Shown one piece after another: positions 1-64,000 of a stretch of DNA of 64,000 nucleotides. A program made the position numbers and the translations under genes. The notes under the pieces are model-generated. The model saw nothing but the letters and a program-made list of their open reading frames with translations. It had not been told where the DNA came from and ran no database searches. Numbering within the stretch: position 1 is the stretch's first letter; the number at the start of each line of letters is the position of its first letter. This DNA comes from a virus: IMG/VR virus record IMGVR_UViG_3300045988_102159, positions 64,001 to 128,000 of that record, one strand, 5' to 3'.

Positions 1-679
1 GGTTAGAACCTGTCCATTTCATTACCCTTTTAATGCGGCGAGGTACATCCTCAATAACGATATTGTTTAAATCTTCACCACCATAATGATTCACTAGCTC
101 TTTGATAATGTCATAGATTAATACCTTTTTAGTAACATATGCGCCACTTGCGTCCTGCGTATCCATTTCATCGAAGATAACAGCCGCGGGTAATGTACCA
201 GAAACATCACCAGATAAACCGCACATCTTATCTTTCAGTGTCAGCTGTAAAGATACCGCAGATGAAACAGAAGATGATGCACTTGCACTTGCAATAAAGA
301 AAACACCTTGAGGAAACCATAAGATAGGATAATTTAGAAATTGATTGCTATGGTTTTCAACGCCAATTTCAATAAAAATTTTCTTGTTGATTGCAAAATC
401 ATATGACATATTTTCAATATCATATTCACCGCTATCAATAGATGCGGTCAATGAGCAAGTGCGTCTGATAGACGAAGAACCGTCTTTAGAAAGACTGCCA
501 GACGCAATAACGCCTTGAATCTCCTTTAACGGTTCTTCGTTCCAATTGAGGAGGGTTAGCCGTACATACTGTTTTTGATTTACAAAATTATCAATAGTCT
601 TGAGAAAATTTCTACGCTTTAATGCACTATTGGCATCTTCATAAAAGCTGTCATTTAAATAAGGATATGTCCTTCTCAT
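1..679 (-). CDS. Tail/baseplate structural protein, N-terminal part only (gene continues beyond left edge)
   Basis: Frame is open from ATG 679-677 down to position 2. A GGAGGG RBS overlaps the stop of the 1013-aa gene. Absent from the ORF track only because no stop lies in the window. Function inferred from position at the distal end of the tail operon. Confidence 0.55.
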   Translation of the reverse strand, partial: MRRTYPYLNDSFYEDANSALKRRNFLKTIDNFVNQKQYVRLTLLNWNEEPLKEIQGVIASGSLSKDGSSSIRRTCSLTASIDSGEYDIENMSYDFAINKKIFIEIGVENHSNQFLNYPILWFPQGVFFIASASASSSVSSAVSLQLTLKDKMCGLSGDVSGTLPAAVIFDEMDTQDASGAYVTKKVLIYDIIKELVNHYGGEDLNNIVIEDVPRRIKRVMKWTGSN

Positions 680-687
680 TTTCCCTC

Positions 688-3600
688 CTATTGATAATTC
701 GTAGTCATTACAGTACCATAGTAGTTAATCATACCCTCTACTGGCATTGCGGCAATACCAATACGCTCTGTCGATGTATTTCCATCAATCGTATCAATTG
801 ATGCAAATGCAAAATCATACCACTGATAATTATAGTATAATTTCAACTCATTGTTAATATTATACACGGTATTTAAAACAGGTTTTTTAATTTCATCTAT
901 TGAATTATACATTTGAGTGCCAGCGTCCATGCCAATAGCATTCCATGTCTCATCAAAGGAATCTTGCGGCTCTTGCTCGTCTTGAATAACTGAAACTGGT
1001 TGTTTCGTATCAGTATTATCTATTACAGTAAACCAATTAAGAGCTGTGGCATTAGTTGCGCCGACAGACGAATCAAGTCTAAATTCATTCTCTTGGAGAT
1101 ACTTTTTCTTATTTGTAAGTTTCATTCGTATACCCAAGAAACATATATCATCTACTGGAACGTCTCTCAGCATATGCAAAACGCCTGTTCCGCCGACAAG
1201 ATAATTCTTATATTCATCTTCATTATGATACTTGATACTAGCAACCGCATAAGGAGTAACATCTAAACAGATGCCTTTCCAATATTTCATGCGTTTACTA
1301 GAAAGCATAACATCACCATTCATTTGAATAAAATTATATTTATTTCTAATCTTATTGCCAAGATAAGCGTTAGGTTTAAATACGCCACTCTCCTGACCTA
1401 CAAGTGTGCGGTCAATTGATGCACCAGATACAGCTTCTTTTGCGCTAGAACGTTCTTTATAGCAAAGCGTGTATTCAATGGTAACAACATCGCCGATTTG
1501 GAAATAAAGACCAGTAACGTCTAGCTTGTTTGGAATTTGGTAATAACCACGTTCATTTACAAAGATATTATGATTACCATCGCTACCACGAGTAATAACG
1601 CCAAAATAATATCCACGCTGAACCTGATTTTGATTCAGCATTTCCGCAAGGCCATTTGTGTTTTCAGTAATTTCTGTTAGACCATCTGAATTTGCTTGAA
1701 ATGTATAATAGCGAGGTTTAGAATGATAAAAAATCTTAACATTTTTAAGAACAATATCCTCTGCTTTATATCCGGCTAAAACGCCACTATACTTCTTTGA
1801 TAGGGCATCGTTAATTTCATTCCTAATATCATTGTTATTTGTCACTGTCATCTTATACATCTGTGCAGGTTTAATTACTTCAATATAATCTTTAGGGTCA
1901 TCTTCTGAATCATGATTGCCGCCATTGATTGAACCAATCATTTTGCGGTTATAGATACCAAGAGTATCAAGAGTATCTAGAGAAGAAGCATCCTCAATCT
2001 CATAAACGGTAGCAGAAAAATTCCATAGCCTGCGGCCAACTGTAGAATTAGGTGTCAATGTAACATCTGTAAGCATTACAACCATTGAACCCTCTGCCAT
2101 TGAACGATATAGCTTAGGCTCACCATCATTTAACCATGCAATTAGCTTTTCACGGAATTCACGCTCGTAGAGCCAATCGTTTGTAGTAGTTGTTAGATAC
2201 TCCTGTGACGTTACACTAGAAATAGGTCCACTGGGATACTGATTTCCTCCAGTCTTTTCATAATTCTTAAAATCATTACGAATTAAATCTTTAACACCAG
2301 TTTCATCTTTATATTCTGAATATAGGTCTTTAAGAGTATCATTATTATGATGAATAAGTTCTGTCTTATTTGCAAATTCAGAATAAACATCAGACTCAGC
2401 ACTAATCAAACCTGAAATACTAAACTGCTTATAATTCAATACAGCATTTTCCGCAAACTTAGGATATTTACCACCAAGAGTATCAATCTTAGCTCTGTTG
2501 ACTACTGGCTTAAAGCTACTAACCTGATAATTATATCTTACCGCATATTGCTCCATACCACGAGAAAAATAAGCGTCATAGAATTGCGGCAAAACCACTT
2601 TTGACATAGTTGGTTTGGCAATAGACATTCCAGTAGAAGTAAGAGCTTCTACGCGATAACGATACCATGTCAGACTTTCTACAGTATTATCTACAATTGA
2701 AAAATCAATTTGCTGTAGCTTTGCGCTATAGATTGTCTCCCATTCTTTAAAGTTATCTTTATTAGATGCGCGTCTTACATATACAGATACACCGTCACTA
2801 AAAGAATATTCATTTTTAACCGAAACCTTAATTGACGCAGTTTCATCGTTGACTTCTGCGGCAATTGTAGGCTGCCATTCATCAGCACCAGTATATTCTC
2901 CAATTTGGAATTTATATTCTTTGCTAAGCTGATACTGATTCTTTGTGCGGCAAGTGATGCGGCATACATAATATGTACTAGTAGGGTCTGATGTAGAACC
3001 ATCCGCGCTGTTCTTTAAAGATGAAAAATCAATATTATATACAATATTATTTGGATTAAGATTTTCACCAGTGTAAATAGTGGGAGTAGAGAATAATACA
3101 TTATTTGAATCATCTAGAATGTCAAATTGATATGCTTCAAGTGTTTCGGTTTCAGTATTTAAAATTACTTCTTCGCCACTTTCATTTTTAGTGACAAAAA
3201 TAAGACCGCCCGCAATTTGCGTTAAGCCTTTATTAAAAGTCATATATGAATTGCCTGTATAGTTTTCAAATACAGACAGATAAATTTTAGGTTGGTGAAT
3301 AGGTCTAATTAGACAAACAGAAGACCATTCTGAAAAATATTGCGTATGTGATAAAAGATAACTATTCTTCTTTGCTTCATCATTAATAGGCACTTCATCA
3401 GTTCCATTATAGCTGTCAAATCGAATCTGAACTTTATAGAACTGATTCGTATTGAAAGCATTGCCCTCGATATAAGCGGTAGGTATCGTTACATAATACA
3501 TACCGCTTACTTTATCGAATTGTAAATCTTCAATTAGAATGCCCGAAAGTTTATTCAAGGCATTCTCATTATTAAGCTGATTTACGCAACTGACATGTAC

Positions 3601-3729
3601 GTGCTTAATCTCAGATGCAGAATTAAAAGAAGAAAGAGTAAAATACACAACAGCATCTTCTGTGTTTACAAAAGCATTTTGAAATGTTGAAACCACAGGT
3701 GGATACAGTGTACTAACGACTGTTGCCAT
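688..3729 (-). CDS. Large distal tail / fibre-like structural protein (1013 aa)
   Basis: Long ORF with AAGGAAG RBS, co-oriented downstream of the tape measure and the 1713-aa tail protein. Function by position only. Confidence 0.6.
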   Translation of the reverse strand: MATVVSTLYPPVVSTFQNAFVNTEDAVVYFTLSSFNSASEIKHVHVSCVNQLNNENALNKLSGILIEDLQFDKVSGMYYVTIPTAYIEGNAFNTNQFYKVQIRFDSYNGTDEVPINDEAKKNSYLLSHTQYFSEWSSVCLIRPIHQPKIYLSVFENYTGNSYMTFNKGLTQIAGGLIFVTKNESGEEVILNTETETLEAYQFDILDDSNNVLFSTPTIYTGENLNPNNIVYNIDFSSLKNSADGSTSDPTSTYYVCRITCRTKNQYQLSKEYKFQIGEYTGADEWQPTIAAEVNDETASIKVSVKNEYSFSDGVSVYVRRASNKDNFKEWETIYSAKLQQIDFSIVDNTVESLTWYRYRVEALTSTGMSIAKPTMSKVVLPQFYDAYFSRGMEQYAVRYNYQVSSFKPVVNRAKIDTLGGKYPKFAENAVLNYKQFSISGLISAESDVYSEFANKTELIHHNNDTLKDLYSEYKDETGVKDLIRNDFKNYEKTGGNQYPSGPISSVTSQEYLTTTTNDWLYEREFREKLIAWLNDGEPKLYRSMAEGSMVVMLTDVTLTPNSTVGRRLWNFSATVYEIEDASSLDTLDTLGIYNRKMIGSINGGNHDSEDDPKDYIEVIKPAQMYKMTVTNNNDIRNEINDALSKKYSGVLAGYKAEDIVLKNVKIFYHSKPRYYTFQANSDGLTEITENTNGLAEMLNQNQVQRGYYFGVITRGSDGNHNIFVNERGYYQIPNKLDVTGLYFQIGDVVTIEYTLCYKERSSAKEAVSGASIDRTLVGQESGVFKPNAYLGNKIRNKYNFIQMNGDVMLSSKRMKYWKGICLDVTPYAVASIKYHNEDEYKNYLVGGTGVLHMLRDVPVDDICFLGIRMKLTNKKKYLQENEFRLDSSVGATNATALNWFTVIDNTDTKQPVSVIQDEQEPQDSFDETWNAIGMDAGTQMYNSIDEIKKPVLNTVYNINNELKLYYNYQWYDFAFASIDTIDGNTSTERIGIAAMPVEGMINYYGTVMTTNYQ

Positions 3730-21524: not shown

Positions 21525-21781
21525 CATTATGTTATCTTATAGTTTCCTATAAGTTCAGACTATATCTTCACCTCTAATAATAGAGGGTTTTCCACTTCGC
21601 TTTGTTATAAAGCTACTCCATAAAGGATAGTCGTTGAACGTACTCGTTCGCTGCTGATTACCAGTTAAGGCTTCCAGCAATTCAAAAAAGATTTTACAAC
21701 GCATCGCTGCGCAGGTACCCGAACATCACTTTAAAAGACTACTAACAGACCAATTAAAGACTAATAGCAGACATTCTAGAC
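21525..21781 (-). mobile_element. Group I intron D of major tail gene (257 nt)
   Basis: P1 GUACCU/GGGUAC with U.G at the splice site. Also GAAUUGCUGGAAGCC, GUUCAACGACUA (rc 21628-21639), AGAUAUAGUCU (rc 21557-21568) and a terminal G. Confidence 0.85.
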
Positions 21782-22431
21782 AGGTACTTGGATCGCCATT
21801 GTTCGCCATAGAGAACGTAAAGTTACTCTGGATTTTACCACGAGGAATGACGAATTCGGCAGGAAGGTCTACGCCAGTCTCTTCATCACGGAAAAGTGTA
21901 GACGCTTCAATGTAATAGTAACCAGCGAAGTTCTCAGCATCAATCTGCATCTCATAGGCTTCATCGTAATGAACCTCATAGCAGTCAATGCGGACGGTAT
22001 CGCCAGCCTTTACAGCGGCATCTTGCTTGCTATCGCCGGGTTCATCGGCGGCAAGCTGGAAAGCGATAGTTTTACCTTCGGCTTGAATCTCACCATGATC
22101 GCCAAGGGTGGCGGCAGCTAGGGTCTTGCCATCATTGATAACAAAGACCTGCTTGTCGGTGACAGCAGAAAGGTAATTAGCTTGAGCACCAGCACTATCA
22201 AGAGTAACAGGATAGATAGGAGCTTCTTTTGTAACGATGATAGTCGCGCCATTGCGGTCTTCATCGGTTAACTTGGCGATAATCTTATCGCCAGAGGTTT
22301 CGGCAACCATATCATATGTAGCATGGACATAGATAGGAGTCTTATTTTCACCAGTTTTCTTACCGTGTACTAGACCAGCACCAGACAGCATAGCGAAACT
22401 GGTAGGACTCATTAGAGAGTCTTCAAGAGTG
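21782..22431 (-). CDS. Major tail (tube-like) protein, exon 4
   Basis: Corresponds to track ORF 21726-22412 plus in-frame upstream codons (..TLEDSL-MSPTSF...). The sense ends at ANNGDPST, and the ORF tail CLECLLLVFNW... is intron. An alternative 5' boundary is 22439. Confidence 0.75.
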
Positions 22432-41369: not shown

Positions 41370-41396
41370 AAACTAACCAAGAGAAAGGATACAACA

Positions 41397-41705: not shown

Positions 41706-41813
41706 ATTAAAACAAGGCGTTACTAAATAGTAGCGCCTTTATTTTGTTTAGAATAATTAAAGCACTTGCCGCAAACACTATAGTTCTTTAGTCTCATGAT
41801 ATGCGGCCTATGT

Positions 41814-41827
41814 TTCACGTGAAACGT
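41814..41827. repeat. Perfect 14-bp palindrome GTTTCACGTGAAAC (copy 1 of 4)
   Basis: Read directly from the sequence. Confidence 0.9.
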
Positions 41828-41955
41828 TAATAGCATCCTGAAACCATAACCAAGTGCCGCATAGTCAAGCAACTGTTTTAGTTGCTTTTGGTCTGATGCA
41901 ACTGTTTTAGTTGCTCTTCTGGTTGACCATGCAAAAAGGGCGAAGCCCACAAAAA

Positions 41956-42003
41956 GGCCATTTATGGCCGCGAAATTATACACCATGCGTACAGCTTTGT
42001 CAA
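41956..42003 (-). promoter_or_regulatory. Leftward promoter-hairpin cassette a
   Basis: TTGACA (rc 41998-42003), 17 bp, TATAAT (rc 41975-41980), then hairpin GGCCA-TTTA-TGGCC (41956-41969) followed by T's on the minus strand. Confidence 0.6.
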
Positions 42004-42200
42004 GAGTTTTTGACGAGATTTTTCAAAACTTTTTTCTCCACACAGTGCCCACAATCCCGAAACTGGGCATACTTTTGCATTCCATCGCATGGGACAAAAG
42101 CAGGTCTATTTTAAATTGCCGTCTTTTTTGCTTTTGCGCTGAAAATGACTTTTAATCTGATTTTGAAATTGAATCTGAAAATGATTTCTGATTTGAAAAT

Positions 42201-42263
42201 TGATTTTGAATCTGATTTTCAATTTGATTTTGAATCTGATTTTCAATTTGATTTTGAATCTGA
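42201..42263. repeat. 24-bp tandem repeat TGATTTTGAATCTGATTTTCAATT x2.6 within a wider degenerate array (42150-42265)
   Basis: Read directly. It is responsible for the DFESDFQF repeats in the spurious ORF 42145-42354. Confidence 0.85.
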
Positions 42264-42267
42264 AAAT

Positions 42268-42281
42268 GTTTCACGTGAAAC
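42268..42281. repeat. GTTTCACGTGAAAC (copy 2)
   Basis: Read directly from the sequence. Confidence 0.9.
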
Positions 42282-42315
42282 GCAAGCGCGCCGTAGGCGA
42301 AACTTAATCACAAAA

Positions 42316-42363
42316 GCCCATTTATGGGCAGAAAATTGTACTACCGCGATTTAGTTTTGTCAA
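42316..42363 (-). promoter_or_regulatory. Leftward promoter-hairpin cassette b
   Basis: TTGACA (rc 42358-42363), 17 bp, TACAAT (rc 42335-42340), hairpin GCCCA-TTTA-TGGGC (42316-42329). Confidence 0.6.
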
Positions 42364-42406
42364 GAACTTTTTTCAAAAAATTTTTTGGCGCACTTGCCGC
42401 CCGAGT

Positions 42407-42432
42407 CCAAAAAAAGGCTCCCCGAGGGGAGC
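42407..42432 (-). terminator. Terminator of the leftward 63-aa gene
   Basis: GGCTCC-ccgagg-GGAGCC followed by a T-run on the minus strand. Confidence 0.6.
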
Positions 42433-42442
42433 CTAGCCGAAC

Positions 42443-42634
42443 TTATGAAAATTGCTCTATGTTCTGGTCGATTACATTACGGATGGTGGTTAGCGCTTCA
42501 AGTATTTCGTCCTTCTGCTTTTGGATTATCTCGCGCTCGCGGTCGCTTTTGGCGTTAGCGTAGTTCGCCTGAGCCGAGTAAAGCATCCCGAGAAGGTCGA
42601 GGGTAGGCAGGCTTGCGAGGTTTTTGTCGATCAT
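42443..42634 (-). CDS. Hypothetical helical protein (63 aa)
   Basis: Track ORF trimmed to ATG 42634 with AAGGAG RBS. It has its own leftward promoter (TTGCGC, 18 bp, TATACT near 42680-42715) and a terminator. Confidence 0.6.
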   Translation of the reverse strand: MIDKNLASLPTLDLLGMLYSAQANYANAKSDREREIIQKQKDEILEALTTIRNVIDQNIEQFS

Positions 42635-42759
42635 TTGAAACTCCTTTAGTTTGTTCTTCCCAACTGACAAGGTCAGTATACACCTGCTAGGGCATGGTGC
42701 GCAATAGTTATTTTGAAAAAAGTTTCCCCAAAAGCAAAAAAGTTTTTAGAAAAAAGTTC

Positions 42760-42788
42760 TTGCGCTCGGTATAATGTTCCCTTATACT
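42760..42788 (+). promoter_or_regulatory. Rightward promoter of the early-cassette type
   Basis: AAAAAGTTCTTGCGC, 17 bp, TATACT. Same upstream half as the leftward early promoters. Confidence 0.6.
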
Positions 42789-42827
42789 ATAGTTGTAACG
42801 CAAGGAGCTAACCCAAAGGAGTTGCCA

Positions 42828-43010
42828 ATGTTCAAGAACAGCACAATGGCAAAGTGGTATGATATTGTCGAGGTCATTGCATGGATTGTCTATGCCGCAA
42901 CATTCGTCTGGTTCCTGCTCACGGATGCGAACGCTGCTGTAAATGCTAACTTATTAGCGGCTGCGTGGGCGTTTCCCATGCAAATGTACCGCGCCTATTG
43001 GAATTTGTAG
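42828..43010 (+). CDS. Small membrane protein (60 aa)
   Basis: ATG 42828 with AAGGAG RBS and a hydrophobic core. Confidence 0.55.
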   Translation: MFKNSTMAKWYDIVEVIAWIVYAATFVWFLLTDANAAVNANLLAAAWAFPMQMYRAYWNL

Positions 43011-43087
43011 AAAATATGGCGGTTGCAATAACCGCCATAATCTGATAGAATAATAAGCGTAGCGAAGCAACAAGGAAAGGAAATACT

Positions 43088-43558
43088 ATGTGCAACATTG
43101 ACAAGACCATCAAGGAGCTGAACACGGCTCTGGTTCTGCTTGACGCTTTTGGTGATGGGCATGAGTTCACTATGCACCATTATGAGGAACTTGCCGCAAC
43201 CGCCAACGAGCTTTTTGGTGGTCGTTACAGCGATTCAAACGTTTGCTATAGTGTTAGTTGGGTTCGCAAGCATCTAAACTATTTCGGCATTCATAAGACT
43301 GGTTCGCGTGAGATTGAAGTTATTAGTTCTCACAAAGTTTACAAGAGTGTTTATAGTGACTTTTTTAAGGGTATATACGATGGGAACAAAATTGATACTA
43401 AAACCGTTGAGCAATTCATTTACCGCATGGATGCAGTAGAGGACTGCAAGAACTTTATCAAGCGTCGCAAGGATGAAATTCGTTGTGAAATGGATAGAAT
43501 AGAAGCGACCATCGAGCGCGACAAGCAGCGTCTTGAAACACTCAAGAAAATGCTTTAG
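43088..43558 (+). CDS. Hypothetical protein (156 aa)
   Basis: AAGGAAAGGA RBS and a terminator. Confidence 0.65.
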   Translation: MCNIDKTIKELNTALVLLDAFGDGHEFTMHHYEELAATANELFGGRYSDSNVCYSVSWVRKHLNYFGIHKTGSREIEVISSHKVYKSVYSDFFKGIYDGNKIDTKTVEQFIYRMDAVEDCKNFIKRRKDEIRCEMDRIEATIERDKQRLETLKKML

Positions 43559-43570
43559 CAGATAGCAAAA

Positions 43571-43600
43571 CCGTCCATCTGAAAAGGTGGGCGGTTTATT
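43571..43600 (+). terminator. Intrinsic terminator (plus-strand specific)
   Basis: CCGTCCATC/GGTGGGCGG. The two U.G pairs become C.A mismatches on the other strand. Confidence 0.65.
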
Positions 43601-43614
43601 GTTTCACGTGAAAC
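43601..43614. repeat. GTTTCACGTGAAAC (copy 3)
   Basis: Read directly from the sequence. Confidence 0.9.
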
Positions 43615-43636
43615 GTTAAAGCACGCACACTCAAAA

Positions 43637-43684
43637 GCCCATAGTTGGGCAGAAAATTATACACGAGTACAAAACGTTTGTCAA
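43637..43684 (-). promoter_or_regulatory. Leftward promoter-hairpin cassette c
   Basis: TTGACA (rc 43679-43684), 17 bp, TATAAT (rc 43656-43661), hairpin GCCCA-TAGT-TGGGC (43637-43650). Confidence 0.65.
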
Positions 43685-43750
43685 GCGTTAAATTGAAAAA
43701 ACTTGAGAAAAATAAAAATAATTTTATCCCAAAATAATTAGGTTTTTCGC

Positions 43751-43778
43751 TTGCGCTCACACGCAAAGCGTGTATAAT
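43751..43778 (+). promoter_or_regulatory. Rightward promoter
   Basis: TTGCGC, 16 bp, TATAAT. Confidence 0.5.
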
Positions 43779-43818
43779 AATAGCTGTAAGCAAGCAAGGA
43801 ACAGAAAGGACTTGCAAA

Positions 43819-43923
43819 ATGTTTGAAACCATGAACCCCAACAGCCCGTACTTCTCTGATTACATTGATGAGCTTGAAGCCTACTACCCGGACGAACCTA
43901 TGGAATTCGATTTTGAGGACTAG
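43819..43923 (+). CDS. Small acidic peptide (34 aa)
   Basis: Below the ORF-track cutoff. Has a GAAAGGA RBS, its own promoter and the terminator GCCCGCCC..GGGTGGGC. Encodes MFETMNPNSPYFSDYIDELEAYYPDEPMEFDFED. Confidence 0.45.
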   Translation: MFETMNPNSPYFSDYIDELEAYYPDEPMEFDFED

Positions 43924-44191
43924 GACAAGTAACCAACATAAAGCCCGCCCGAAAAGGGTGGGCTACCTTTTACAAGAAAGGCTAAAGTATGGGCGATTTT
44001 GAAAATTGCAATTCTTATGCGGAAGTGTGCGCTTGTATTCTAGGTAAGTTCGTAGGGCTTGCTGCCAAATACAGCATCTTTTGGTGGGTAGGTAAAATAA
44101 TCCTAGGACTATAAAAATTAGGCGGATTGGGTATCCTAATCCGCCTTTTTATGTTATACTTGGGTCGTAGACCAAGAGAAGGGATAGAATA

Positions 44192-44374
44192 ATGTATTAC
44201 CTCAAGCGTGACAACACCAAAGACTTTAGCATTGATAAATACAAATGCTACGATTCGAGCGCTCCACTTGCGGCGCATAAGGCAAGGGCACAAGAGATAG
44301 TCGAGTACGAACGCACAACGTGCGAGGTCGTAGACGATAGCGGCAACGTTGTATTTGTCGCATTAGCTCATTGA
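44192..44374 (+). CDS. Hypothetical protein (60 aa)
   Basis: GAAGGGA RBS and the terminator AAGGCGCT-ttat-AAGCGCCTT followed by T's. Confidence 0.6.
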   Translation: MYYLKRDNTKDFSIDKYKCYDSSAPLAAHKARAQEIVEYERTTCEVVDDSGNVVFVALAH

Positions 44375-44706
44375 TTCTAAGGCGCTTTATAAGCGCCTTT
44401 TTATTTGCCGCTTTGGTTGCACCAATGCGCGTAGGCATTTTATCAAATGGCACCTTGTAGGCGATTCGGTCACAACTTGACCGAGTTGTTTTTTTTATGT
44501 ATTCGCGTATTCACGCTCTCATGGTTTGACTTTTCGCTTGACTTATGTTACACTAAAGGATTAGACCAAAAGACTTATGGAGGAATTGTGTGCGGCAAAT
44601 TGATACTTGCCAAACTAGGACGCTTACCGCATAATAATAGTTGTCCAAAGGCGAGGGCGTAAGAGTAACAGGTAGTTACACGCCCGAACGGGGACAGGAG
44701 GTTACT

Positions 44707-44943
44707 ATGTTGTATCTGGTTTCGGTTAGCGGCGTTAGCGCGGGTGAATCGCTTGACGATTACGAGAACTTTATCGTTGAAGCTGATAGCGAGAAAAAAC
44801 TTGCCGCTGCTATCGTTGCTGACCGTTTGGATGGCATGGAGTCGAAAGAACTTGACGGTTCTGTTTGGCGCGTGCGTGAGTTGGGCGAAGAGTTCGACTA
44901 TAACGTTAATCTTGAGTACGTTTGCAAGGGCGAACGTCTTTAG
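44707..44943 (+). CDS. Hypothetical protein (78 aa), GC-rich paralogue of 45001-45252
   Basis: ATG 44707 with GGAGG RBS. Shares MLYLV...FIVEAD..K.LA.AI...W.VRELG..F...G.RL with the next gene. Confidence 0.6.
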   Translation: MLYLVSVSGVSAGESLDDYENFIVEADSEKKLAAAIVADRLDGMESKELDGSVWRVRELGEEFDYNVNLEYVCKGERL

Positions 44944-45000
44944 TTTTATTTAAAAGGCGGGCGAAACAAAGCCCGCCTACTTTAAAAATTGGAGTTTATT

Positions 45001-45252
45001 ATGTTGTATTTGGTTTGCCATGATACTATTGATACCGTCAACGAATTTATTTGTGATGATAATAATTATTTTATCGTTGAAGCTGATAACGATAAAGAGC
45101 TTGCAACCGCAATTGCTAACGTTGCGATTGAGTATGATTGGTGTAGTGATGCAACAGGAATCGATACTACTTGTTGGAACGTTCGAGAGCTAGGCGATAA
45201 CTTTGAGTTTCAAATTTTTTCGCCCAAGACGTTTGACGGCAAGCGTCTTTAG
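45001..45252 (+). CDS. Hypothetical protein (83 aa), AT-rich paralogue of 44707-44943
   Basis: ATG 45001 with TGGAG RBS; terminator. Confidence 0.6.
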   Translation: MLYLVCHDTIDTVNEFICDDNNYFIVEADNDKELATAIANVAIEYDWCSDATGIDTTCWNVRELGDNFEFQIFSPKTFDGKRL

Positions 45253-45305
45253 TTGAAAAGGGTAGGGCGTAAGCCCTACCCACTTTTGAAAGTGGATACA
45301 GATAG

Positions 45306-45548
45306 ATGAAAAAAATTGTTGCGTGGGAAAACGTGCAATACGTTGTTTTATTCCTTACAGTGGTTGGGCAGATTCTTATTGGCGTTAACTACTTTTTAGG
45401 CCAAGGTACGTGGTTACTTGCAAATGTTATCACTGTTACGCGAAACGTTAAATTAGACCGTCCAAGAGCTGATAAAGTGCAAGGTTGGTTTATGTTTGCA
45501 CTAACGTTTGGCCTTATTGCCGCAAACGCTTTTATTCAGTTGCACTAA
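45306..45548 (+). CDS. Small membrane protein (80 aa, 2-3 TM)
   Basis: ORF track; hydrophobic segments. Confidence 0.55.
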   Translation: MKKIVAWENVQYVVLFLTVVGQILIGVNYFLGQGTWLLANVITVTRNVKLDRPRADKVQGWFMFALTFGLIAANAFIQLH

Positions 45549-45616
45549 TCGCAAACATTTGATACAATAAAGGATGTGGAGCAAACGTTCCACGTCCTAC
45601 TATCACAAGGGAATAA

Positions 45617-46099
45617 ATGAAAGCAATTGTATTAGACCTTGATGGCGTGCTTGTTGATTTTTACAACGTCAACGGTTGGTTGTCTATGTTGCAAGCGGAA
45701 AACGCGGCGCCTTATTTAATCGCAAAACCGTTAGGCGATTACAAGAAACTAAACGGTTTACTTGCCGCGTTGCAAGGCTACGGTTACGCGGTCGAGGTCG
45801 TTAGTTGGTTGGCAAAGGGCGAAACGTCTAAGCAATTTGATAGCGCGGTACGTAAGAACAAACTCGCATGGTTGCGCAAATATTATCCTGCTATTAACTT
45901 GAAGAATGTTCACGTTGTCAAGCATGGTACAAACAAATGGCGCGTATCAAACTACAAGGGCGGCATTTTGTTTGACGATGAAAGCGGCAACGTACACGCA
46001 TGGCAACGTGATACGTCAAGCGGCAAGGCGGTACGTATCAAAGACGAAACTACTTTGCTAGACGCGCTAGAGTCTCTTATTATCCAAGAGCTAGAATAG
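45617..46099 (+). CDS. HAD-superfamily phosphatase, 5'(3')-deoxyribonucleotidase-like (160 aa)
   Basis: Motif I DLDGVL at residues 7-12 and a later ILFDDES motif. Size fits NT5C-like phage enzymes. Confidence 0.55.
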   Translation: MKAIVLDLDGVLVDFYNVNGWLSMLQAENAAPYLIAKPLGDYKKLNGLLAALQGYGYAVEVVSWLAKGETSKQFDSAVRKNKLAWLRKYYPAINLKNVHVVKHGTNKWRVSNYKGGILFDDESGNVHAWQRDTSSGKAVRIKDETTLLDALESLIIQELE

Positions 46100-46129
46100 A
46101 GTTAGGGGAGCGGCAACGCTTCCCTTTTT

Positions 46130-46143
46130 GTTTCACGTGAAAC
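46130..46143. repeat. GTTTCACGTGAAAC (copy 4)
   Basis: Read directly from the sequence. Confidence 0.9.
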
Positions 46144-46156
46144 ATTAAAACCGTTA

Positions 46157-46202
46157 CGCCATAGTTGGCGGCGATTTTACCACAACACGCAACCAAAAGC
46201 AA
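46157..46202 (-). promoter_or_regulatory. Leftward promoter-hairpin cassette d (degenerate)
   Basis: TTGCTT (rc 46197-46202), 17 bp, TAAAAT (rc 46174-46179), hairpin CGCCA-TAGT-TGGCG (46157-46170). Confidence 0.45.
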
Positions 46203-46417
46203 GAGAAAAATTAGAAAAAGTTTTTTATTTTCTCGCGTGCGGCACGTCATAAAAGTGCTATACTAACCTTAGTCGGGAGGACAACGGCACTTAAATAGCC
46301 CACTCATTATGACTTCGGTGTTGGCGCATTCTGCTCCGACCCCGGCGTTTGCTACGCAAACGGCGACACGTTCTCTACAGTTAGGTACCTTGAGTTAGCT
46401 ATAGTTAATTTTTATAC

Positions 46418-46446
46418 TTGACAAATTATGAATTTTATGTTATGAT
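46418..46446 (+). promoter_or_regulatory. Promoter of the free-standing HNH gene
   Basis: TTGACA, 17 bp, TATGAT. Confidence 0.6.
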
Positions 46447-46467
46447 TATTGACAAAGGAGGTAAATT

Positions 46468-46974
46468 ATGGTTTTATCAAAAGAATATCCAGACAACAAA
46501 AATTACATAATTTATTCAGATGGACGTATTTATTCTAAATGTAGTAGCATTTTTCTTAAACCTAAAATAGATAAAGCAGGTTACGCAAATGTTACGTTTT
46601 GCGACAAAGGAAAAAGACGATATTTTAAAGTGCATCAATTAGTGGCAAAAATGTTTATACCAAATCCAAACAATTATGACCAAGTTAATCATTTAGACGA
46701 AAACAAATTAAATAATGACGTTTCTAACCTTGAATGGTCAACGCCTTATTTAAATTCAAATTATGGTACTAGAAATAAGCGAATTGGCATTACTCTAGCT
46801 GTTCCTATTTTAATGCTAGACAAAGAAACAAAGCAACCACTTAAACGTTTCGGTGGCATTGCAGACGCTGAAAAATGGTTAGCTAAAAAAGACGGACGCA
46901 GTAACATAATTGCTGCTCTAAAAGGTCGTAGACCTTATGCTTACGGTTTTTGTTGGAAATATGTAGAGCAATAA
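46468..46974 (+). CDS. Free-standing HNH homing endonuclease (168 aa)
   Basis: AAGGAGG RBS. NUMOD4-like N-terminus, HQLVAKMF...VNHLDENKLNNDVSNLEW core and a C-terminal HTH-like tail. AT-rich insert with the same architecture as the intron-encoded enzyme. Confidence 0.75.
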   Translation: MVLSKEYPDNKNYIIYSDGRIYSKCSSIFLKPKIDKAGYANVTFCDKGKRRYFKVHQLVAKMFIPNPNNYDQVNHLDENKLNNDVSNLEWSTPYLNSNYGTRNKRIGITLAVPILMLDKETKQPLKRFGGIADAEKWLAKKDGRSNIIAALKGRRPYAYGFCWKYVEQ

Positions 46975-47046
46975 TCAGTTGACGCAACAACGCAAAACGC
47001 TATACTAGTTAGTGTAATCAGTTAAGCCTAAGCGAAAGGTTTTAAA

Positions 47047-47760
47047 ATGGCTAACTTCTGTGTTTTAGACTGTGAAACTTGTACAACTGTCAACCACAAA
47101 GACGGCAAGGCTCACCCCGAAACGTCTTTGGTGTATGACTTTGGTTACACCATCCGCGACAACGACAACAACGTTATTCGTGAGCGCTCATTTGTTGTAA
47201 CGGATACGTTTTATCAAGTTGACCTAATGAAAAGCGCTTACTATGCCGACAAAATCCCGACTTATTATGAGGGTATCAAGTCGGGCGAATGGGTTGAAGC
47301 GTCTTTCAATGAGGTTTGGCGCACGTTCAAAGCTGATTGTAAAGAGTGCAACGTCAAAAGCGCGTGGGCTTACAATTGTAGGTTTGACGAAATAGCGCTA
47401 AACAATACGTTGCGCACGTATTCAAACGGTTTCGCTACATGGTTCATGCCTTTCAAGCTACGACTGAAAGACATTTGGGACTACGCAAGTAACATTACTA
47501 GTTCCAAGCGCTATTTAAAGTATTGCGTAGCAACGGGAGCCTTTACACCTAGCGGAAACCCTTCAACTAGCGCTGAAAGTGTTTACCGTTTTATCAACAA
47601 TGAGCACGACTTTACAGAAGACCATACGGCACTTTCAGACGCGCGTATTGAAGCGGCTATTTTGCTTGCGGCAAAGGCAAAGCACAAAAAGACGCGCCAT
47701 AGTTCGCGTGGTCAAGGTTGGCGAGACGCAAGCACGGCATTTAAGGCGCTCGACCTTTAA
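47047..47760 (+). CDS. DEDDh (DnaQ-like) 3'-5' exonuclease (237 aa)
   Basis: ExoI VLDCET, ExoII AYNCRFDE, ExoIII HTALSDA. Confidence 0.6.
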   Translation: MANFCVLDCETCTTVNHKDGKAHPETSLVYDFGYTIRDNDNNVIRERSFVVTDTFYQVDLMKSAYYADKIPTYYEGIKSGEWVEASFNEVWRTFKADCKECNVKSAWAYNCRFDEIALNNTLRTYSNGFATWFMPFKLRLKDIWDYASNITSSKRYLKYCVATGAFTPSGNPSTSAESVYRFINNEHDFTEDHTALSDARIEAAILLAAKAKHKKTRHSSRGQGWRDASTAFKALDL

Positions 47761-47976
47761 ACGAATGGGGAGCCTAACGGCTCCCTTTTCTTTTGCCATG
47801 AGTAAAGGCGATTCTAGCGCTCTAGAGCGTGCGGCAAGCACTTTATTTAAAATAAGGACTTTGACCAAATGGCACCTTAAAACGCGTCTCATGGCTTCTA
47901 TGGCGATATTTTTTTATTTAGGTACCGCATTATCCGGCAAGAAGTTAGCTACAGTTAACACCGCTTAAATCGGCTC

Positions 47977-47990
47977 TCATGGCTTCGTTA
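47977..47990. repeat. Perfect 14-bp palindrome GTTAGGTACCTAAC (copy 1 of 2)
   Basis: Read directly. TTAGGTACC half-sites also occur near 46381, 47920 and 49566. Confidence 0.9.
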
Positions 47991-48041
47991 GGTACCTAAC
48001 TAATCAAGCAAAGTTTGCCATTGGTAACTTTGGATTTAAAA

Positions 48042-48057
48042 GTTTACCCAGGTAAAC
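48042..48057. repeat. Near-palindrome GTTTACCCAGGTAAAC
   Basis: Read directly. Followed by CTCC, as in the 49765 copy. Confidence 0.85.
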
Positions 48058-48067
48058 TCCATCAAAA

Positions 48068-48117
48068 CGCCATTTATGGCGCAAAAAATTTTACACCCGC
48101 CACCATAGTTTTGTCAA
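48068..48117 (-). promoter_or_regulatory. Leftward promoter-hairpin cassette e
   Basis: TTGACA (rc 48112-48117), 18 bp, TAAAAT (rc 48088-48093), hairpin CGCCA-TTTA-TGGCG (48068-48081). Confidence 0.55.
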
Positions 48118-48154
48118 GCACTTTTTTGTCTACATTTTTTCTACATATTTCCTA

Positions 48155-48243
48155 TTTGAAACGCTTCAATTATTGAAACGCTCTAAAAAGTTACCCTAGG
48201 GTAACGCTGATTGAAACGCTTCAAGTTTTAAAACGCTTTAAAT
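48155..48243. repeat. Four direct repeats T(T/A)(G/A)AAACGCT(T/C)(C/T)AA
   Basis: Copies lie near 48155, 48172, 48209 and 48227, flanking the 16-bp palindrome. Confidence 0.8.
48190..48205. repeat. Perfect 16-bp palindrome GTTACCCTAGGGTAAC
   Basis: Read directly from the sequence. Confidence 0.9.
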
Positions 48244-48284
48244 GCACTTGTTTAAACAACCGTAGCTCCGAGGTTGGGTTCAAA

Positions 48285-48314
48285 ATTTTACACCCACCTG
48301 ATTAGGTTTGTCAA
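48285..48314 (-). promoter_or_regulatory. Leftward promoter f
   Basis: TTGACA (rc 48309-48314), 18 bp, TAAAAT (rc 48285-48290), 10-A upstream tract. The hairpin is poorly conserved. Confidence 0.5.
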
Positions 48315-48627
48315 CAATTTTTTTTTTGTAATTTTTCGTTTTGACCACAAACTTTTCACAACCTGAAACTCAAATTTTTTTATGCAAGATTTGCCGCAAA
48401 TGGCCTGATTCTATTCATTTTGCTTTGTCTGGCTACAGTGCCGATATTTTGAGAATCTGAAAAAACTAGGCTATTTACCTGGGGTTTCCATATTTTGAAC
48501 ACAATTTTTAAAATAGTTCTTGCCAAAAAGTTTATGCAAGCGTATAGTAATAGTTGTCCAAAGGGGACAGAGAAAAAAGAGCCGAACGGCGGCTCGCTCG
48601 CGTCTCGGGGACAGATTGGGGTTAGCT

Positions 48628-49056
48628 ATGGCTACCACTCGCACCAAGTTCCAGTTCACCGACTACCAGATGTTCGCGGCTCTCGTGAACGTCGCAGGCG
48701 ATATCTCGCCCGAGGTCATTGCCAAGGCTTTGGGGGATAACTATGACCCCGAGAAGCACACGCCTGAGAGCCTTGCCCGCAAGGTCTCGCATAAGTTCCA
48801 TGTTCTCAAGGAGAACGCGACCAAGCCCAAGGCCCCGAGCAAGACGGCACAGCTGAATAAGGCGCTTGCCGAGCAGGTTGCTGCTGAGTTCGCGGACGGT
48901 GAGCCGTTCACGCTTAATGACGTGATGGCAAAGCACCCAGCCGATATCAAGACGTTTAGCAAGGCGGGTGTTGTGGTGAACGTACTCCTTGCCGAGAAGC
49001 GTGTCCGCAAGGCGGCACCTATCAACAACAAGACCGCCTATGTTATCGTAGCGTAG
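48628..49056 (+). CDS. GC-rich winged-helix-like protein (142 aa)
   Basis: Track ORF 48520 trimmed to ATG 48628. C-terminal pattern ...KAGVVVNVLLAEKRVRKA..NNKTAYVI resembles 50858-51187. Confidence 0.5.
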   Translation: MATTRTKFQFTDYQMFAALVNVAGDISPEVIAKALGDNYDPEKHTPESLARKVSHKFHVLKENATKPKAPSKTAQLNKALAEQVAAEFADGEPFTLNDVMAKHPADIKTFSKAGVVVNVLLAEKRVRKAAPINNKTAYVIVA

Positions 49057-49131
49057 CCGTCTATAGGGTGGGGGAGATAATCCCCCACCCACTACCCAAG
49101 CACCTATAAAACAGCATAAGGACGGTCACGT

Positions 49132-49398
49132 TTGGAATCCTACAGACGTAACGCGCTAATTGCAGCATTTGGCGAGCTACCCGACAAAGAGTTGCAATGC
49201 CTAGGGCGCGGGCTAGAAGCTCACCACGTAAACAGCATGGCAAGCGGAAACGTAGTTTTGCTACCTTGCGAGATTCATAAAGTGGTTCACACACTAACGC
49301 AATTGGGCGGTAACGCCTACGCGAGCGGTGAGATAGAGAACGCCGAAACGCTCACCAAATGCGCACAAATGCTATTAGCGCAATTTACAATAAAATAA
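49132..49398 (+). CDS. Small HNH-motif protein (88 aa, TTG start)
   Basis: EAHHVNS...GNVVLLPCEIHKVVH; AAGGA RBS; terminator. Confidence 0.45.
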   Translation: MESYRRNALIAAFGELPDKELQCLGRGLEAHHVNSMASGNVVLLPCEIHKVVHTLTQLGGNAYASGEIENAETLTKCAQMLLAQFTIK

Positions 49399-49413
49399 CA
49401 CAATTAAATAAAT

Positions 49414-49444
49414 AACCCCACCGGGTAGGTGGGGTTTTCTTTTG
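49414..49444 (+). terminator. Intrinsic terminator
   Basis: AACCCCACC/GGTGGGGTT followed by a T-rich tail. Confidence 0.7.
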
Positions 49445-49553
49445 CGTTTAATTCCTACTAAAAAGGTAGGAAAAAGATCGCCCTGCCCAGCACAAACGCG
49501 CGAAAAAGTCAAGACTTTTTGAAAAAATTCACAGAAATTCCATAGTTGGGTCG

Positions 49554-49583
49554 ATTTTACACGATTAGGTACCTTATTGTCAA
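49554..49583 (-). promoter_or_regulatory. Leftward promoter g
   Basis: TTGACA (rc 49578-49583), 18 bp, TAAAAT (rc 49554-49559). Remnant hairpin CCATAGTTGG lies to its left. Confidence 0.5.
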
Positions 49584-49764
49584 GATTTTTCAAGCAAAAA
49601 CACAACTTTTACACAAAAAACTGAGCGCCTGAAACGCGTTTAAACGACCTTGCGCCCGGTTCCCTTGCGTTCCTAGGCACTTTTGGCTATCGCCCGCTCT
49701 AGGGCTATCTCAGGGCCGCACACGCGAAAAAAATTAACTTCGGTACCGAGCGACCCGAGCAGGT

Positions 49765-49780
49765 GTTACCCTAGGTAAAC
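49765..49780. repeat. Near-palindrome GTTACCCTAGGTAAAC
   Basis: Read directly from the sequence. Confidence 0.85.
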
Positions 49781-49791
49781 TCCGAGTTATT

Positions 49792-49805
49792 GTTAGGTAC
49801 CTAAC
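49792..49805. repeat. GTTAGGTACCTAAC (copy 2)
   Basis: Read directly from the sequence. Confidence 0.9.
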
Positions 49806-49845
49806 TATTATTTGTGGAGATTCCGTGTTGGTTTTGTGAAGGTAC

Positions 49846-49874
49846 TTGACAAATCAATAATTGTATAGTATAAT
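49846..49874 (+). promoter_or_regulatory. Perfect consensus sigma-70 promoter, rightward
   Basis: TTGACA, 17 bp, TATAAT. Confidence 0.7.
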
Positions 49875-50374
49875 ATAATAGAGTAATACTATACAATAAT
49901 ACCATATTTGGGACTGCCGCCGCCGTTGCGCCCATATGGCGAAATTGTGTAGAAATGGGGACTATATGCCAAGAGCCTATAAAATCCTAAAACGAAAGTC
50001 AATCCTAAAATTAAATAAAAAAATCCCTCCACACCTATATAGTGAGAAGGGACAGAACTACCATATGTATATGCCAAGAGAACGTTCTAAAATGAATTTT
50101 AATCGTTTTTTGCGTACCCCTGTACGGCATAAGAAAAATAAGTCTATTTGTCTTGATTCCTGCGGCCAGTAGAAACTCAAAACTAATCGTAAAAGACTTT
50201 AGGCTCACACAAACCAAGAGACAGAAGAAAAAGAAGCGTGCGGCACATGCCTTTTGTAAGTGAAAATTAATGCGGAAATGTGACTAATTTAGTTACATTT
50301 AAAAAGTGTTTTTTTAATATATGTTTTTACTAAGGTATAAATTACACATTCCTGCCCAAAAATTTTGGCCGCAT

Positions 50375-50746
50375 TTACTTTGCCTTGGGCTTGCGCTTGC
50401 ACACCATAGATAGCTCATACGTCTTGGAATTGAGAATGAATCGGATTTTGCCATCATCGCCTACCTCGATGCCATGCGGCGCATCCTCCCAGTCACCGAT
50501 GGTCATGGTAAGTTCTCCCAGTGCGTCCGCAATGGAATTCATAATCAATCGCTTTTCAGACATTTTCTTCTCCTTCTTGTCTGTGTCAGGTCGATAGGCT
50601 GCGTCATATTCGATTCCATTTTCAATCAAAAAAAGGTTGGCAGCGCTTGCCTTGAGTATTGCCTGCTGTCTCTTGGACTCGATATACTCATCAGGAATAT
50701 CTATGGTATGCTCGTTACCCTTCATATCATAATAGGTGTGCCGCAT
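50375..50746 (-). CDS. Hypothetical early protein (123 aa)
   Basis: CCAAGAGA leader and AAGGAAG RBS. Confidence 0.6.
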   Translation of the reverse strand: MRHTYYDMKGNEHTIDIPDEYIESKRQQAILKASAANLFLIENGIEYDAAYRPDTDKKEKKMSEKRLIMNSIADALGELTMTIGDWEDAPHGIEVGDDGKIRFILNSKTYELSMVCKRKPKAK

Positions 50747-63356: not shown

Positions 63357-63798
63357 ATTTCTGTCTCCAAAGTTCACGTGCGGCCATTCGTGCTTCACGG
63401 CATTCAGGCGAAGAATCATTCTTTCCTGTCTGCTGGAAAACATAATCTTCAATAAAATCATAATGATTTATACCATCGACATTTTTTACGAATTTAGGAC
63501 AGCACGTAGGCCACCAAGCTCCAATTCTGCCAATCCTATAAAAACAAGAACCGAATTTCTCATGGCGTTTTCCTTTTGAAGTAACATCGCCTAACCAATG
63601 AACGCATTCACCGCATGTATGGTCAGAGTTTACATCACAAAACTGAAAACAAGATTCACCAATAACATCGTGCATCTGACCTTTGCAAACGCAAGGAAAG
63701 AAATCATGCCTTACACGATTATTGCGACCTTCACAATGCTGCGGACAATGGCTTAAACCCTTGCAAGAGATTTCATATTCTTCTTTAGTCAGACTCAT
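63349..63798 (-). CDS. Cys/His-rich protein (149 aa)
   Basis: Trimmed to ATG 63798 with TGGAGA RBS. About 16 Cys, suggesting metal binding. Confidence 0.5.
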   Translation of the reverse strand: MSLTKEEYEISCKGLSHCPQHCEGRNNRVRHDFFPCVCKGQMHDVIGESCFQFCDVNSDHTCGECVHWLGDVTSKGKRHEKFGSCFYRIGRIGAWWPTCCPKFVKNVDGINHYDFIEDYVFQQTGKNDSSPECREARMAARELWRQKYE

Positions 63799-63985
63799 GT
63801 TTCTCCAATTTAGGATGAATTGCCCATTCACCGCATCTATCTCCAGGCGCAGGCGATGGATGAACTGTATAGATATTATAATCTGTTGGGTCAATAATTA
63901 CGTTAGGCGGGAAACGATAGCATGAGCAATGTACATAAAATTTACATGTTTTGCATGTTCGGTCTATCTTTTTATTCATTACCAT
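63785..63985 (-). CDS. Cys-rich small protein (66 aa)
   Basis: CKTCKF..HCSC...C pattern; ORF track. Confidence 0.5.
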   Translation of the reverse strand: MVMNKKIDRTCKTCKFYVHCSCYRFPPNVIIDPTDYNIYTVHPSPAPGDRCGEWAIHPKLEKHESD

Positions 63986-64000
63986 TAACTTCCATTAGAA

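Follow-up and report, generated by a model that had tools for sequence, protein, structure and literature searches.

The stretch of viral DNA considered here, positions 64,001 to 128,000 of the IMG/VR virus record IMGVR_UViG_3300045988_102159 (the window, 64,000 nucleotides in all), comprises the late structural module and early genes of a large SPbeta-like siphovirus of the human gut, with a genome of approximately 143 kb. It encodes a portal, YonB-, YonD-, YonG-, YomU- and YomW-type proteins and pieces of a tape-measure protein, and proteins identical to its own are found on a 142.6-kb human-gut contig. Among deposited phages there is no close relative, the nearest being a 12-kb faecal fragment (56 % portal identity), phAss-1 (40 %), Enterococcus phages of the Schiekvirus type (30 %) and SPbeta-like phages (~25 %). 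The subject of this analysis is the pentamer TGCGG, read as CCGCA on the opposite strand, which is a short recognition word at the level of DNA; it stands three- to ninefold above chance, has no polarity, is subject to a force that favours its number, and is specific to one phage lineage. The relevant features of the window are the following.

1 to 64000, both strands: the TGCGG/CCGCA core word, the top pentamer, with 227 sites against 73.3 expected at order 1 (z 18)
1 to 64000: GCSGC (GCCGC/GCGGC), with 196 sites against 61 expected at order 1
748 to 754: an example of the degenerate palindrome TGCSGCA (a 7-mer), which has 66 sites in the window against 6.36 ± 2.32 in shuffled sequence
2946 to 2964: two copies of TGCGGCA, 12 nt apart, within a tail gene of 1013 amino acids (aa) at 688-3729 (minus strand)
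31861 to 33462, minus strand: the portal gene, used as the anchor for collecting relatives and for orienting comparison loci
39956 to 39964: an overlapping GCGGC/GCCGC pair, GCGGCCGCA, non-coding by a crude gene call but inside a 121-aa open reading frame (ORF; 39694-40059, minus strand) by the ORF listing
41231 to 41237: an intergenic TGCCGCA between two small plus-strand ORFs, that is, a motif outside coding sequence

The sequence-only reading of this DNA, which had drawn attention to the hexamer GCCGCA/TGCGGC, put it at about tenfold over-representation with well over 100 sites, and exact counting bears this out: 59 copies of GCCGCA and 67 of TGCGGC make 126 sites, against 11.1 expected from mononucleotide composition (order 0; observed/expected ratio, O/E, 11.4). 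Its rough expectation of about 10 sites was close, but its GC content of about 37 % was too low, the true value being 39.05 %. Eight of its twelve example coordinates (748, 965, 2585, 2946, 2958, 33946, 51272 and 59009) are exact; there is no motif at three others (19265, 19327 and 19392), the actual sites lying 16-37 nt away at 19302, 19343 and 19412, and one (62975) is off by 2, the true site being 62973. The Markov models that it had proposed as a check give expectations of 19.8 at order 1, 23.8 at order 2, 60.9 at order 3 (O/E 2.07) and 109 at order 4 (O/E 1.15), and in 100 dinucleotide-preserving shuffles the hexamer numbered 19.56 ± 4.18, with a maximum of 29, none of the 100 reaching 126. 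An excess is thus present from order 0 to order 3. The ratio comes near 1 at order 4 because that model conditions on the embedded 4- and 5-mers, above all pentamers, that carry the signal; a ratio near 1 in models of third to fifth order had been named in advance as grounds for abandoning the claim, but the order-4 value matches the letter of that statement and not its spirit, and the finding stands. The most over-represented words are the tetramer CCGC (order 2), the pentamer CCGCA (order 3) and the hexamer GCCGCA (orders 0-3), and a sister hexamer, GCGGCA/TGCCGC, is nearly as enriched (106 sites against 11 expected). The unit of the signal is the pentamer TGCGG/CCGCA, present on the plus strand as 108 TGCGG and 119 CCGCA (3.55 sites per kb), together with the overlapping GCSGC, whose flanks show a weak symmetry (54 % have T at -1 and 64 % have A at +1, the two being statistically independent of each other). 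In the window phage, TGCGG and GCSGC merge into tGCSGCa, of which GCCGCA is a fragment; the hexamer is enriched, as claimed, but is not the unit. The Fnu4HI-type word GCNGC came into question because SPbeta-group phages are known to have GGCC/GCNGC methyltransferases, but it was rejected as the unit: GCWGC shows no enrichment and is depleted relative to the codon null, GGCC is approximately neutral, and no 5-methylcytosine (m5C) methyltransferase is encoded.

When synonymous codons are shuffled within genes, a null model that preserves both protein sequence and codon usage, GCSGC is found 142 times against 66.4 ± 6.6 (z 11.4), the hexamer 91 times against 24.2 (z 15.4) and TGCSGCA 50 times against 8.3 (z 15.6), while GCWGC is depleted (z -4.2). 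GCSGC uses all three phases on the coding strand (71/49/22) and stands at 3.40 sites per kb in non-coding and 2.95 per kb in coding DNA. The statements of the sequence-only reading that the motif appears in every codon phase, extends into intergenic DNA and reflects selection on DNA rather than on protein (z 11-16 over the synonymous shuffle) are therefore upheld. On the sense strands of the window's genes, TGCGG and CCGCA balance at 83:83, which excludes a role at the level of RNA. The sites are spread evenly, with 8-18 GCSGC per 4 kb, save 3 in the 28-32 kb bin, and their gaps are Poisson-like (coefficient of variation 1.06); no longer shared context was found among the 54 GCSGC sites outside called genes, and so the enrichment is not the work of a few repeated elements. 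Repeats or hairpin stems were likewise rejected as a source, on the Poisson spacing, the lack of shared context and the fact that close GCCGC...GCGGC pairs are not in excess. No preferred spacing, pairing or cooperative or dimer spacing was seen among the copies, whose distances show only codon-phase effects. Coding constraint, in the form of Ala-Ala and Cys-Gly dipeptides combined with codon usage, or a few repeats would be a source of another kind, and it is true that about half of the coding-strand GCSGC sites are Ala-Ala, that TGCGG lies mostly in the phase xxT-GCG-Gxx, and that distances between copies favour multiples of 3. However, the counts lie above those of synonymous and codon-permutation shuffles by z 11-24, non-coding density is equal, the sense strands are balanced and there is no repeat context; the likelihood of such an origin is negligible, and a coding, codon or repeat artefact is excluded.

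Both orientations are, as had been claimed, equally frequent. Relative to the portal strand the core stands at 119:108 in the window and at 360:351 and 105:106 in other tiers of relatives, with a maximum of 60:40 in low-GC tiers; the further excess of TGCGGAA on the sense strand stems from coding. In a near-complete relative, the density over 79 kb lies at 3.1-4.0 sites per kb in each module, with balanced orientation and no switch point. The analysis of strand and position skew that the sequence-only reading had suggested accordingly revealed neither bias nor switch, and the replichore-polarised distribution that marks words such as KOPS and SRS is absent from the window and from the 79 kb of the relative.

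Evidence on how the word is maintained comes from an alignment of the 21.6-kb portal region, which comprised the window, 17 strains of 85-92 % nucleotide identity and two outgroups (71 %), with 14,346 clean columns. Individual sites turn over, retention being 0.78 for CCGCA as compared with 0.73 overall and 0.59-0.69 for similar CG-containing words. When changes are polarised by the outgroups, losses outnumber gains by 35:7 for CCGCA, 25:6 for GCCGC and 19:6 for CGGCA, as against approximately 1:1 for control words, and the ratio for CCGCA is the second-highest among 148 words. The loss alleles of CCGCA are rare (mean frequency 0.11, ~50 % singletons, 0 of 27 above 0.5) when set beside all derived alleles (mean frequency 0.40, 21 % singletons, 36 % above 0.5), and the losses are transitions at every C/G position. 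An equilibrium of mutation and repair predicts balanced fluxes; an excess of rare, young loss alleles is expected of a mutation-selection balance, and the data fit selection that acts on the number of sites rather than on their positions.

The word is not peculiar to the window. Relatives were gathered as eight loci binned in metagenome-assembled genomes (MAGs) and 80 IMG/VR loci, each extending 10 kb to either side of the portal gene. Among the 59 IMG/VR loci that are linked to a portal and measure 9 kb or more, CCGCA ranks first or second of all pentamers in 51 and within the top three in 54, and GCCGC is usually the next pentamer after it. Enrichment extends over portal identities from 98 % to 51 %, GC contents of 27-41 % and order-1 O/E values of 2.5-9.2, in samples from gut, rumen and oral habitats, and it holds regardless of GATC avoidance, for which O/E among relatives runs from 0.0 to 1.0. 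The T of TGCGG is specific, in that AGCGG, CGCGG and GGCGG are not enriched, and the flanks of the core add at most 0.5 bit per position, which is not the picture of a dispersed repeat or mobile element. Extensions at the 3' side are clade-specific, namely -CA in the clade of the window, which gives the palindrome, and -(G)AA in the 61 % tier, where TGCGGGAA has 50 copies against 1.3 expected and TGCGGAAA 55 against 2.4, with the core at z ~40. Two relatives of 50 % GC (L062 and L065; comparison loci bear L numbers) have switched to TGCCG (98 against 37), with CCGCA depleted, and two of 60 % GC (L068 and L069) are not enriched (O/E 1.0), yet have a comparable density of 2.5-2.9 per kb. Over GC contents of 27-41 % the density of the word is 1.3-5.7 per kb, or 4-9 times that of composition-matched control words; given that range, the notion of a strictly constant site density is only partly true. 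TGCGG enrichment is thus a property of one large SPbeta-like phage lineage and not of the window genome alone. As separate observations on these outlying relatives, L062 and L065 nearly lack CTCAG (2 against 102) and CTAAG (1 against 71) and are depleted in GCNGC, and phAss-1 (L011-L013; 44.5 % GC, with TAG recoded) has GCCGC enriched in another context, CGCCGCC (64 against 8.7), CCGCA not being enriched there.

Beyond the lineage the signal is absent from the phages and DNA compared. Neither TGCGG nor GCSGC is enriched in six cultured distant relatives (SPbeta, EF1, P1048, a Staphylococcus SPbeta-like phage, FADO and the C. difficile phage phiCD211). As to the host, the endolysin of the clade (L229:13416-14462) consists of an Amidase_2 domain and an uncharacterised C-terminal half of ~200 aa, and its full-length homologues (47-58 % identity) belong to prophages beside bacterial genes in Bifidobacterium platyrrhinorum and on another two contigs (63-66 % GC); Berryella and an Eggerthella phage have homologues as well. 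These matches give a moderate hint of a high-GC gut actinobacterium as the host of this 39 % GC phage. An endolysin 86 % identical to that of the clade (L237:10001-11056) is carried by an unrelated 166-kb phage with a T4-type portal, in which TGCGG is at O/E 1.0-1.1 and GCCGC at 0.5, and CCAAGAG, a second word of the window, is absent. That phage also avoids GAGGC (O/E 0.14-0.37; L237 and L238), and the shared avoidance together with the similar endolysin suggests that the two phages have a common host. Candidate host DNA has O/E values of 0.6-1.3, those for 27 kb of actinobacterial DNA beside homologous endolysins being 0.87-1.28, a sample too small, and of too uncertain a host assignment, to decide whether the word is over-represented in the host. 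Because neither the co-host phage nor this DNA is enriched, the enrichment belongs to the phage lineage, and a host-generic signature arising from host mutation, repair or amelioration was rejected. MAG labels and cluster names were set aside as uninformative of the host: family contigs (L003-L010) were binned in MAGs labelled Clostridium, Bacillota, Bacilli, Clostridia, Endomicrobiaceae and Gastranaerophilaceae, and as all are at most 140 kb and have no host flank, such placements are probably mis-binned free phage genomes.

Gene modules beyond the window were inferred by walking the genome circle via relatives. A topoisomerase module contains a type IIA topoisomerase, a DNA ligase and ThyX, and a replication and recombination module contains a Sak4-type AAA_24 ATPase, a split DnaB-like helicase, a Toprim primase (L191:16073-17152) and a RecJ-like exonuclease, with a weak RuvC-like match also in the clade. 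Further clade genes encode a split Pol III alpha, guanylate kinase, NrdD/NrdG, dUTPase, FolD and the Amidase_2 endolysin. DNA methyltransferases, Vsr and DpdA were sought around the genome circle and none was found, so that the suggestion of the sequence-only reading that the word is a target for phage DNA modification gains nothing from the gene content; the lone N6_Mtase match is sub-threshold, to a 150-aa ORF with no catalytic motifs on reading and no structural relative found. The type IIA topoisomerase was considered as the reader of the word and rejected, since many phages without the motif have homologues of it, and an odd palindrome of 7 bp would sit poorly with a 4-bp staggered dyad.

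Several other features of these genomes were noted along the way. To the right of the window, in relatives (L111, L125 and L153), lies an island for RNA repair and modification and nucleotide metabolism, which encodes Ro60/TROVE, Rnl1- and Rnl2-type RNA ligases, two PNK-like AAA_33 kinases, a SpoU methylase, an RlmN/Cfr-like radical-SAM fragment, a viperin/NrdG-like radical-SAM protein, an SPFH protein, PhoH and dCMP deaminase; an assignment of the radical-SAM genes to QueE, of the 7-deazaguanine pathway, was dropped on the NCBIfam matches to RlmN/Cfr-like and viperin/NrdG-like families. Three group I introns (Rfam RF00028, 61-80 bits) are located at 21536-22916 and 23085-23576 of the window, both on the minus strand, within 1.4 kb of the tail-tube and tape-measure region and beside an HNH/NUMOD homing-endonuclease ORF, and LAGLIDADG or GIY-YIG elements split genes in other parts of the genome, namely those for the helicase, Pol III alpha and NrdD. 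Positions 38600-50400 of the window are poor in ORFs, richer in GC (42 %) and transcribed from the opposite strand; stop-codon recoding was rejected for 38.6-50.4 kb, as reading TAG, TGA or TAA as sense exposes no long ORFs, TAG recoding being a feature of the distant relative phAss-1. Seven independent IMG/VR contigs (L146, L147, L149, L152, L155, L159 and L160) share one end point, ~3.5-3.8 kb upstream of a 197-aa gene (L125:339-932), while other contigs read through it; the shared end could reflect a terminus of the genome, a terminal repeat or a break of assembly in hypervariable sequence.

The word composition of the window is unusual in other respects as well. GATC is nearly missing, with 6 sites against ~216 expected (O/E 0.03) and 4 against 133 under the synonymous-codon null, and because its O/E varies among relatives independently of TGCGG, the pattern points to clade- or host-specific GATC restriction. 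Other avoided words are CCGG (O/E 0.36), GAGGC/GCCTC (7 against 70), AAGCTT, CCWGG, GGWCC and TGCA, and the avoidance of GAGGC that is shared with the T4-portal phage may reflect a common host restriction system. A second over-represented word, CCAAGAG/CTCTTGG, has 61 sites against 5.6 expected, with CCAATAG at 42 against 7.8; CCAAGAG stays significant at order 5, as it does under the synonymous null (z 9-10), is found in both orientations and also in non-coding DNA, is common to relatives down to the 61 % tier (L003, L004, L034, L047 and L229) but not the low-GC tier, and is enriched in the cultured Enterococcus phage EF1 (L016; 25 against 4).

Taken with its lineage-wide distribution, the maintenance of TGCGG suggests to us that a sequence-specific protein reads the word and that the effect depends on site density. 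The leading specific model, which is put forward tentatively, is that the word is a Chi-like signal for attenuation of an end-entering helicase-nuclease. A host enzyme of the AddAB, AdnAB or RecBCD type would enter at double-strand ends and be attenuated at the word, and since the ends of headful-packaged, permuted genomes would fall at many places and face both ways, the word would have to be present throughout and in either orientation. In a GC-rich host, an AT-rich phage would have too few GC-rich words by chance and would build up a host-like density, which in candidate hosts is ~4 per kb; such a build-up would explain why fold-enrichment rises as phage GC falls and vanishes at 60 % GC. 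Chi is AGCGG in B. subtilis and GAAGCGG in S. aureus, and TGCGG is, like Chi, a short, asymmetric, G-rich word, only one base from AGCGG (4/5 identical). The selection on number is also in keeping with the Chi-like signal that the sequence-only reading had hypothesized, and the switch of the 50 % GC relatives to TGCCG was counted in its favour. There is precedent for the accumulation of Chi by phages that depend on end-processing by the host (PMC12315714, PMC3784561).

A considerable body of evidence nonetheless weighs against the Chi-like model. Neither the orientation bias nor the terminal clustering of Chi is seen in the window or its relatives, in contrast to all documented Chi-rich phages (PMC12315714), with orientations of 20:3 and 32:0 in Chi-rich lambdoids. 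The known Chi-rich lambdoids are also without recombination modules of the kind present here, where the clade has its own Sak4-type AAA_24 ATPase and RecJ-like exonuclease. None of the six cultured relatives accumulates the known Chi of its host: in temperate SPbeta (1-100 kb, L014 and L015) AGCGG is at its expected number and is oriented 37:4, in contrast to the balanced TGCGG, the lytic Bacillus phage FADO (60-110 kb, L227) avoids AGCGG (2 against 21 expected), and Lactococcus P1048 has zero GCGCGTG, so that a habit of accumulating host Chi across the super-group was ruled out by these phages together with the Staphylococcus SPbeta-like phage, phiCD211 and EF1. The unrelated phage of probably the same host lacks the enrichment. 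The same core over gut, rumen and oral samples and over GC contents of 27-41 % would require one Chi across many hosts, and a conserved phage-encoded reader explains this cross-habitat core more simply. We know of no Chi for high-GC Actinobacteria, and since the endolysin points to that group, rather than to firmicutes, the resemblance to AGCGG is weakened. A literature search returned no report of TGCGG as Chi, nor of a Chi in Clostridia. Finally, biased gene conversion mimics selection in frequency spectra and would give the same population signature.

If the reader is instead encoded by the phage, the word may be a lineage-private genome signature, serving self-marking or end-protection, as a Chi-equivalent for a phage nuclease or helicase or as the site of a protective binder, a reading that is possible though doubtful. 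An AT-rich phage would by this means tell its own DNA from that of a GC-rich host, and specificity would co-evolve, giving the TGCGGCA, TGCGG(G)AA and TGCCG variants by clade, with CCAAGAG as a second word. A related and rather unlikely proposal is that the word is the binding or modification target of another lineage-conserved phage protein, which would act on the duplex without polarity in marking, self-recognition, protection from defence or compaction; candidate readers are the Zn-ribbon proteins adjoining terminase and portal, encoded at 35910-37457 and 37488-38576 of the window, a small winged-helix protein encoded at L168:16442-16714, and radical-SAM enzymes acting on DNA, and HU-like proteins are further possible binders. 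The polarity-free, uniform and lineage-tied occurrence of the word, its degenerate palindrome in the clade of the window, as expected of a dimeric duplex binder, the likewise enriched but unrelated CCAAGAG, which suggests several DNA words, and the presence of several uncharacterised Zn-ribbon and winged helix-turn-helix proteins and three radical-SAM proteins are all consistent with such a binder. Yet neither a DNA methyltransferase nor DpdA, Vsr or any further enzyme known to modify DNA was found around the genome circle, the palindrome is not general, other clades having an asymmetric word (TGCGGGAA), the copies have no preferred spacing or pairing, and no known precedent links a modification target to enrichment.

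Priming by the phage's own DnaG-type primase is an unlikely alternative, in which CCGC-A would be a T7-like pentanucleotide of four templating bases and a cryptic 3' base. In this AT-rich genome such a site would yield a primer that is GC-rich and stable, and a site density raised by selection would keep the priming of the lagging strand from becoming limiting. The clade does encode a replisome of its own (DnaB-like helicase, Toprim primase and Pol III alpha), the word tracks the phage lineage and not the host, its information resides in a GC core of 4 nt and one specific A beside it, and selection on number goes with a uniform spread of sites. But bidirectional theta and rolling-circle replication both predict strand asymmetry for a signal on the lagging-strand template, and no strand bias or switch exists along the 64-kb window or the 79 kb of the relative, nor asymmetry in any module, a result that counts against priming without being decisive; moreover, cultured relatives with homologous replisomes (SPbeta and the Staphylococcus SPbeta-like phage) have no standout word, and DnaG-type primases normally need only trinucleotides. 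A non-adaptive origin, whether by very-short-patch-like biased repair or gene conversion or as a by-product of avoiding many GC-rich restriction sites, is distinctly improbable. It can appeal to the mimicry of selection by gene conversion, to the strong avoidance of GATC, CCGG, GAGGC, AAGCTT, CCWGG and GGWCC along with the depletion of GCWGC, and to the shaping of CCWGG by Dcm/Vsr in E. coli and HIP1 in cyanobacteria as precedents. Against it, no m5C methyltransferase or Vsr-like gene was found; a Vsr-like drain was rejected because it should deplete one-off neighbours (GTSGC, GCSAC and others), which show no depletion; transitions account for the losses at all C/G positions, with none spared; avoidance patterns vary while TGCGG enrichment is constant; avoidance cannot produce a 20-40-fold excess of 7- and 8-mers; and a flux of 5 losses to 1 gain is not expected at mutation/repair equilibrium.

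Set beside established word systems, TGCGG resembles each in part, and no known reader fits it. Like Chi it is short, G-rich and asymmetric, and its number outweighs its position, but it lacks orientation bias and terminal clustering and belongs to a phage with recombination genes of its own. With HIP1 (GCGATCGC) of cyanobacteria it shares the character of a short GC-rich palindrome, many-fold enriched genome-wide, in all codon phases and with lineage variants; HIP1, however, is a feature of cellular genomes and is linked to cognate methyltransferases, whereas the phage lineage has no methyltransferase partner, its word forms a palindrome (TGCSGCA) in some clades but is asymmetric in others, and candidate host DNA (those 27 kb of uncertain host assignment) is not enriched. 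The uptake sequences of Pasteurellaceae (USS) and Neisseriaceae (DUS) are likewise genome-wide, largely orientation-neutral, present in coding sequence, driven in number and subject to turnover between strains, but they are 9-12 nt long, do not characterise phages, and have as their reader the competence machinery of bacteria capable of natural transformation. The pentanucleotide primase sites of phage T7 (GGGTC, TGGTC and GTGTC) also combine a four-base template with a specific flanking base, are read by a phage-encoded primase and are needed all along the genome; they are not, to our knowledge, enriched, and they act on the lagging-strand template, whereas here there is no strand asymmetry and the primase is of DnaG/Toprim type. 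KOPS, read by FtsK, and SRS, read by SpoIIIE, are also short over-represented words, recognised by a DNA translocase, but are defined by strong replichore polarity, and a restriction-modification target would be avoided by the phage or protected by a phage DNA methyltransferase, whereas TGCGG is enriched and no such enzyme is encoded. As a simple diagnostic for the lineage in metagenomes, the word is of practical use, and it could distort k-mer-based host prediction and binning. Chi, the uptake sequences, KOPS and HIP1 are each a genome-wide selected word that revealed a DNA-handling machine. TGCGG is a new case, orientation-free, maintained by selection and confined to a widespread, uncultured family of ~140-kb phages of gut, rumen and oral habitats, and the identity of its reader would bring to light either the Chi-type signal used by a group of hosts not yet studied or a new system of DNA recognition encoded by phages.

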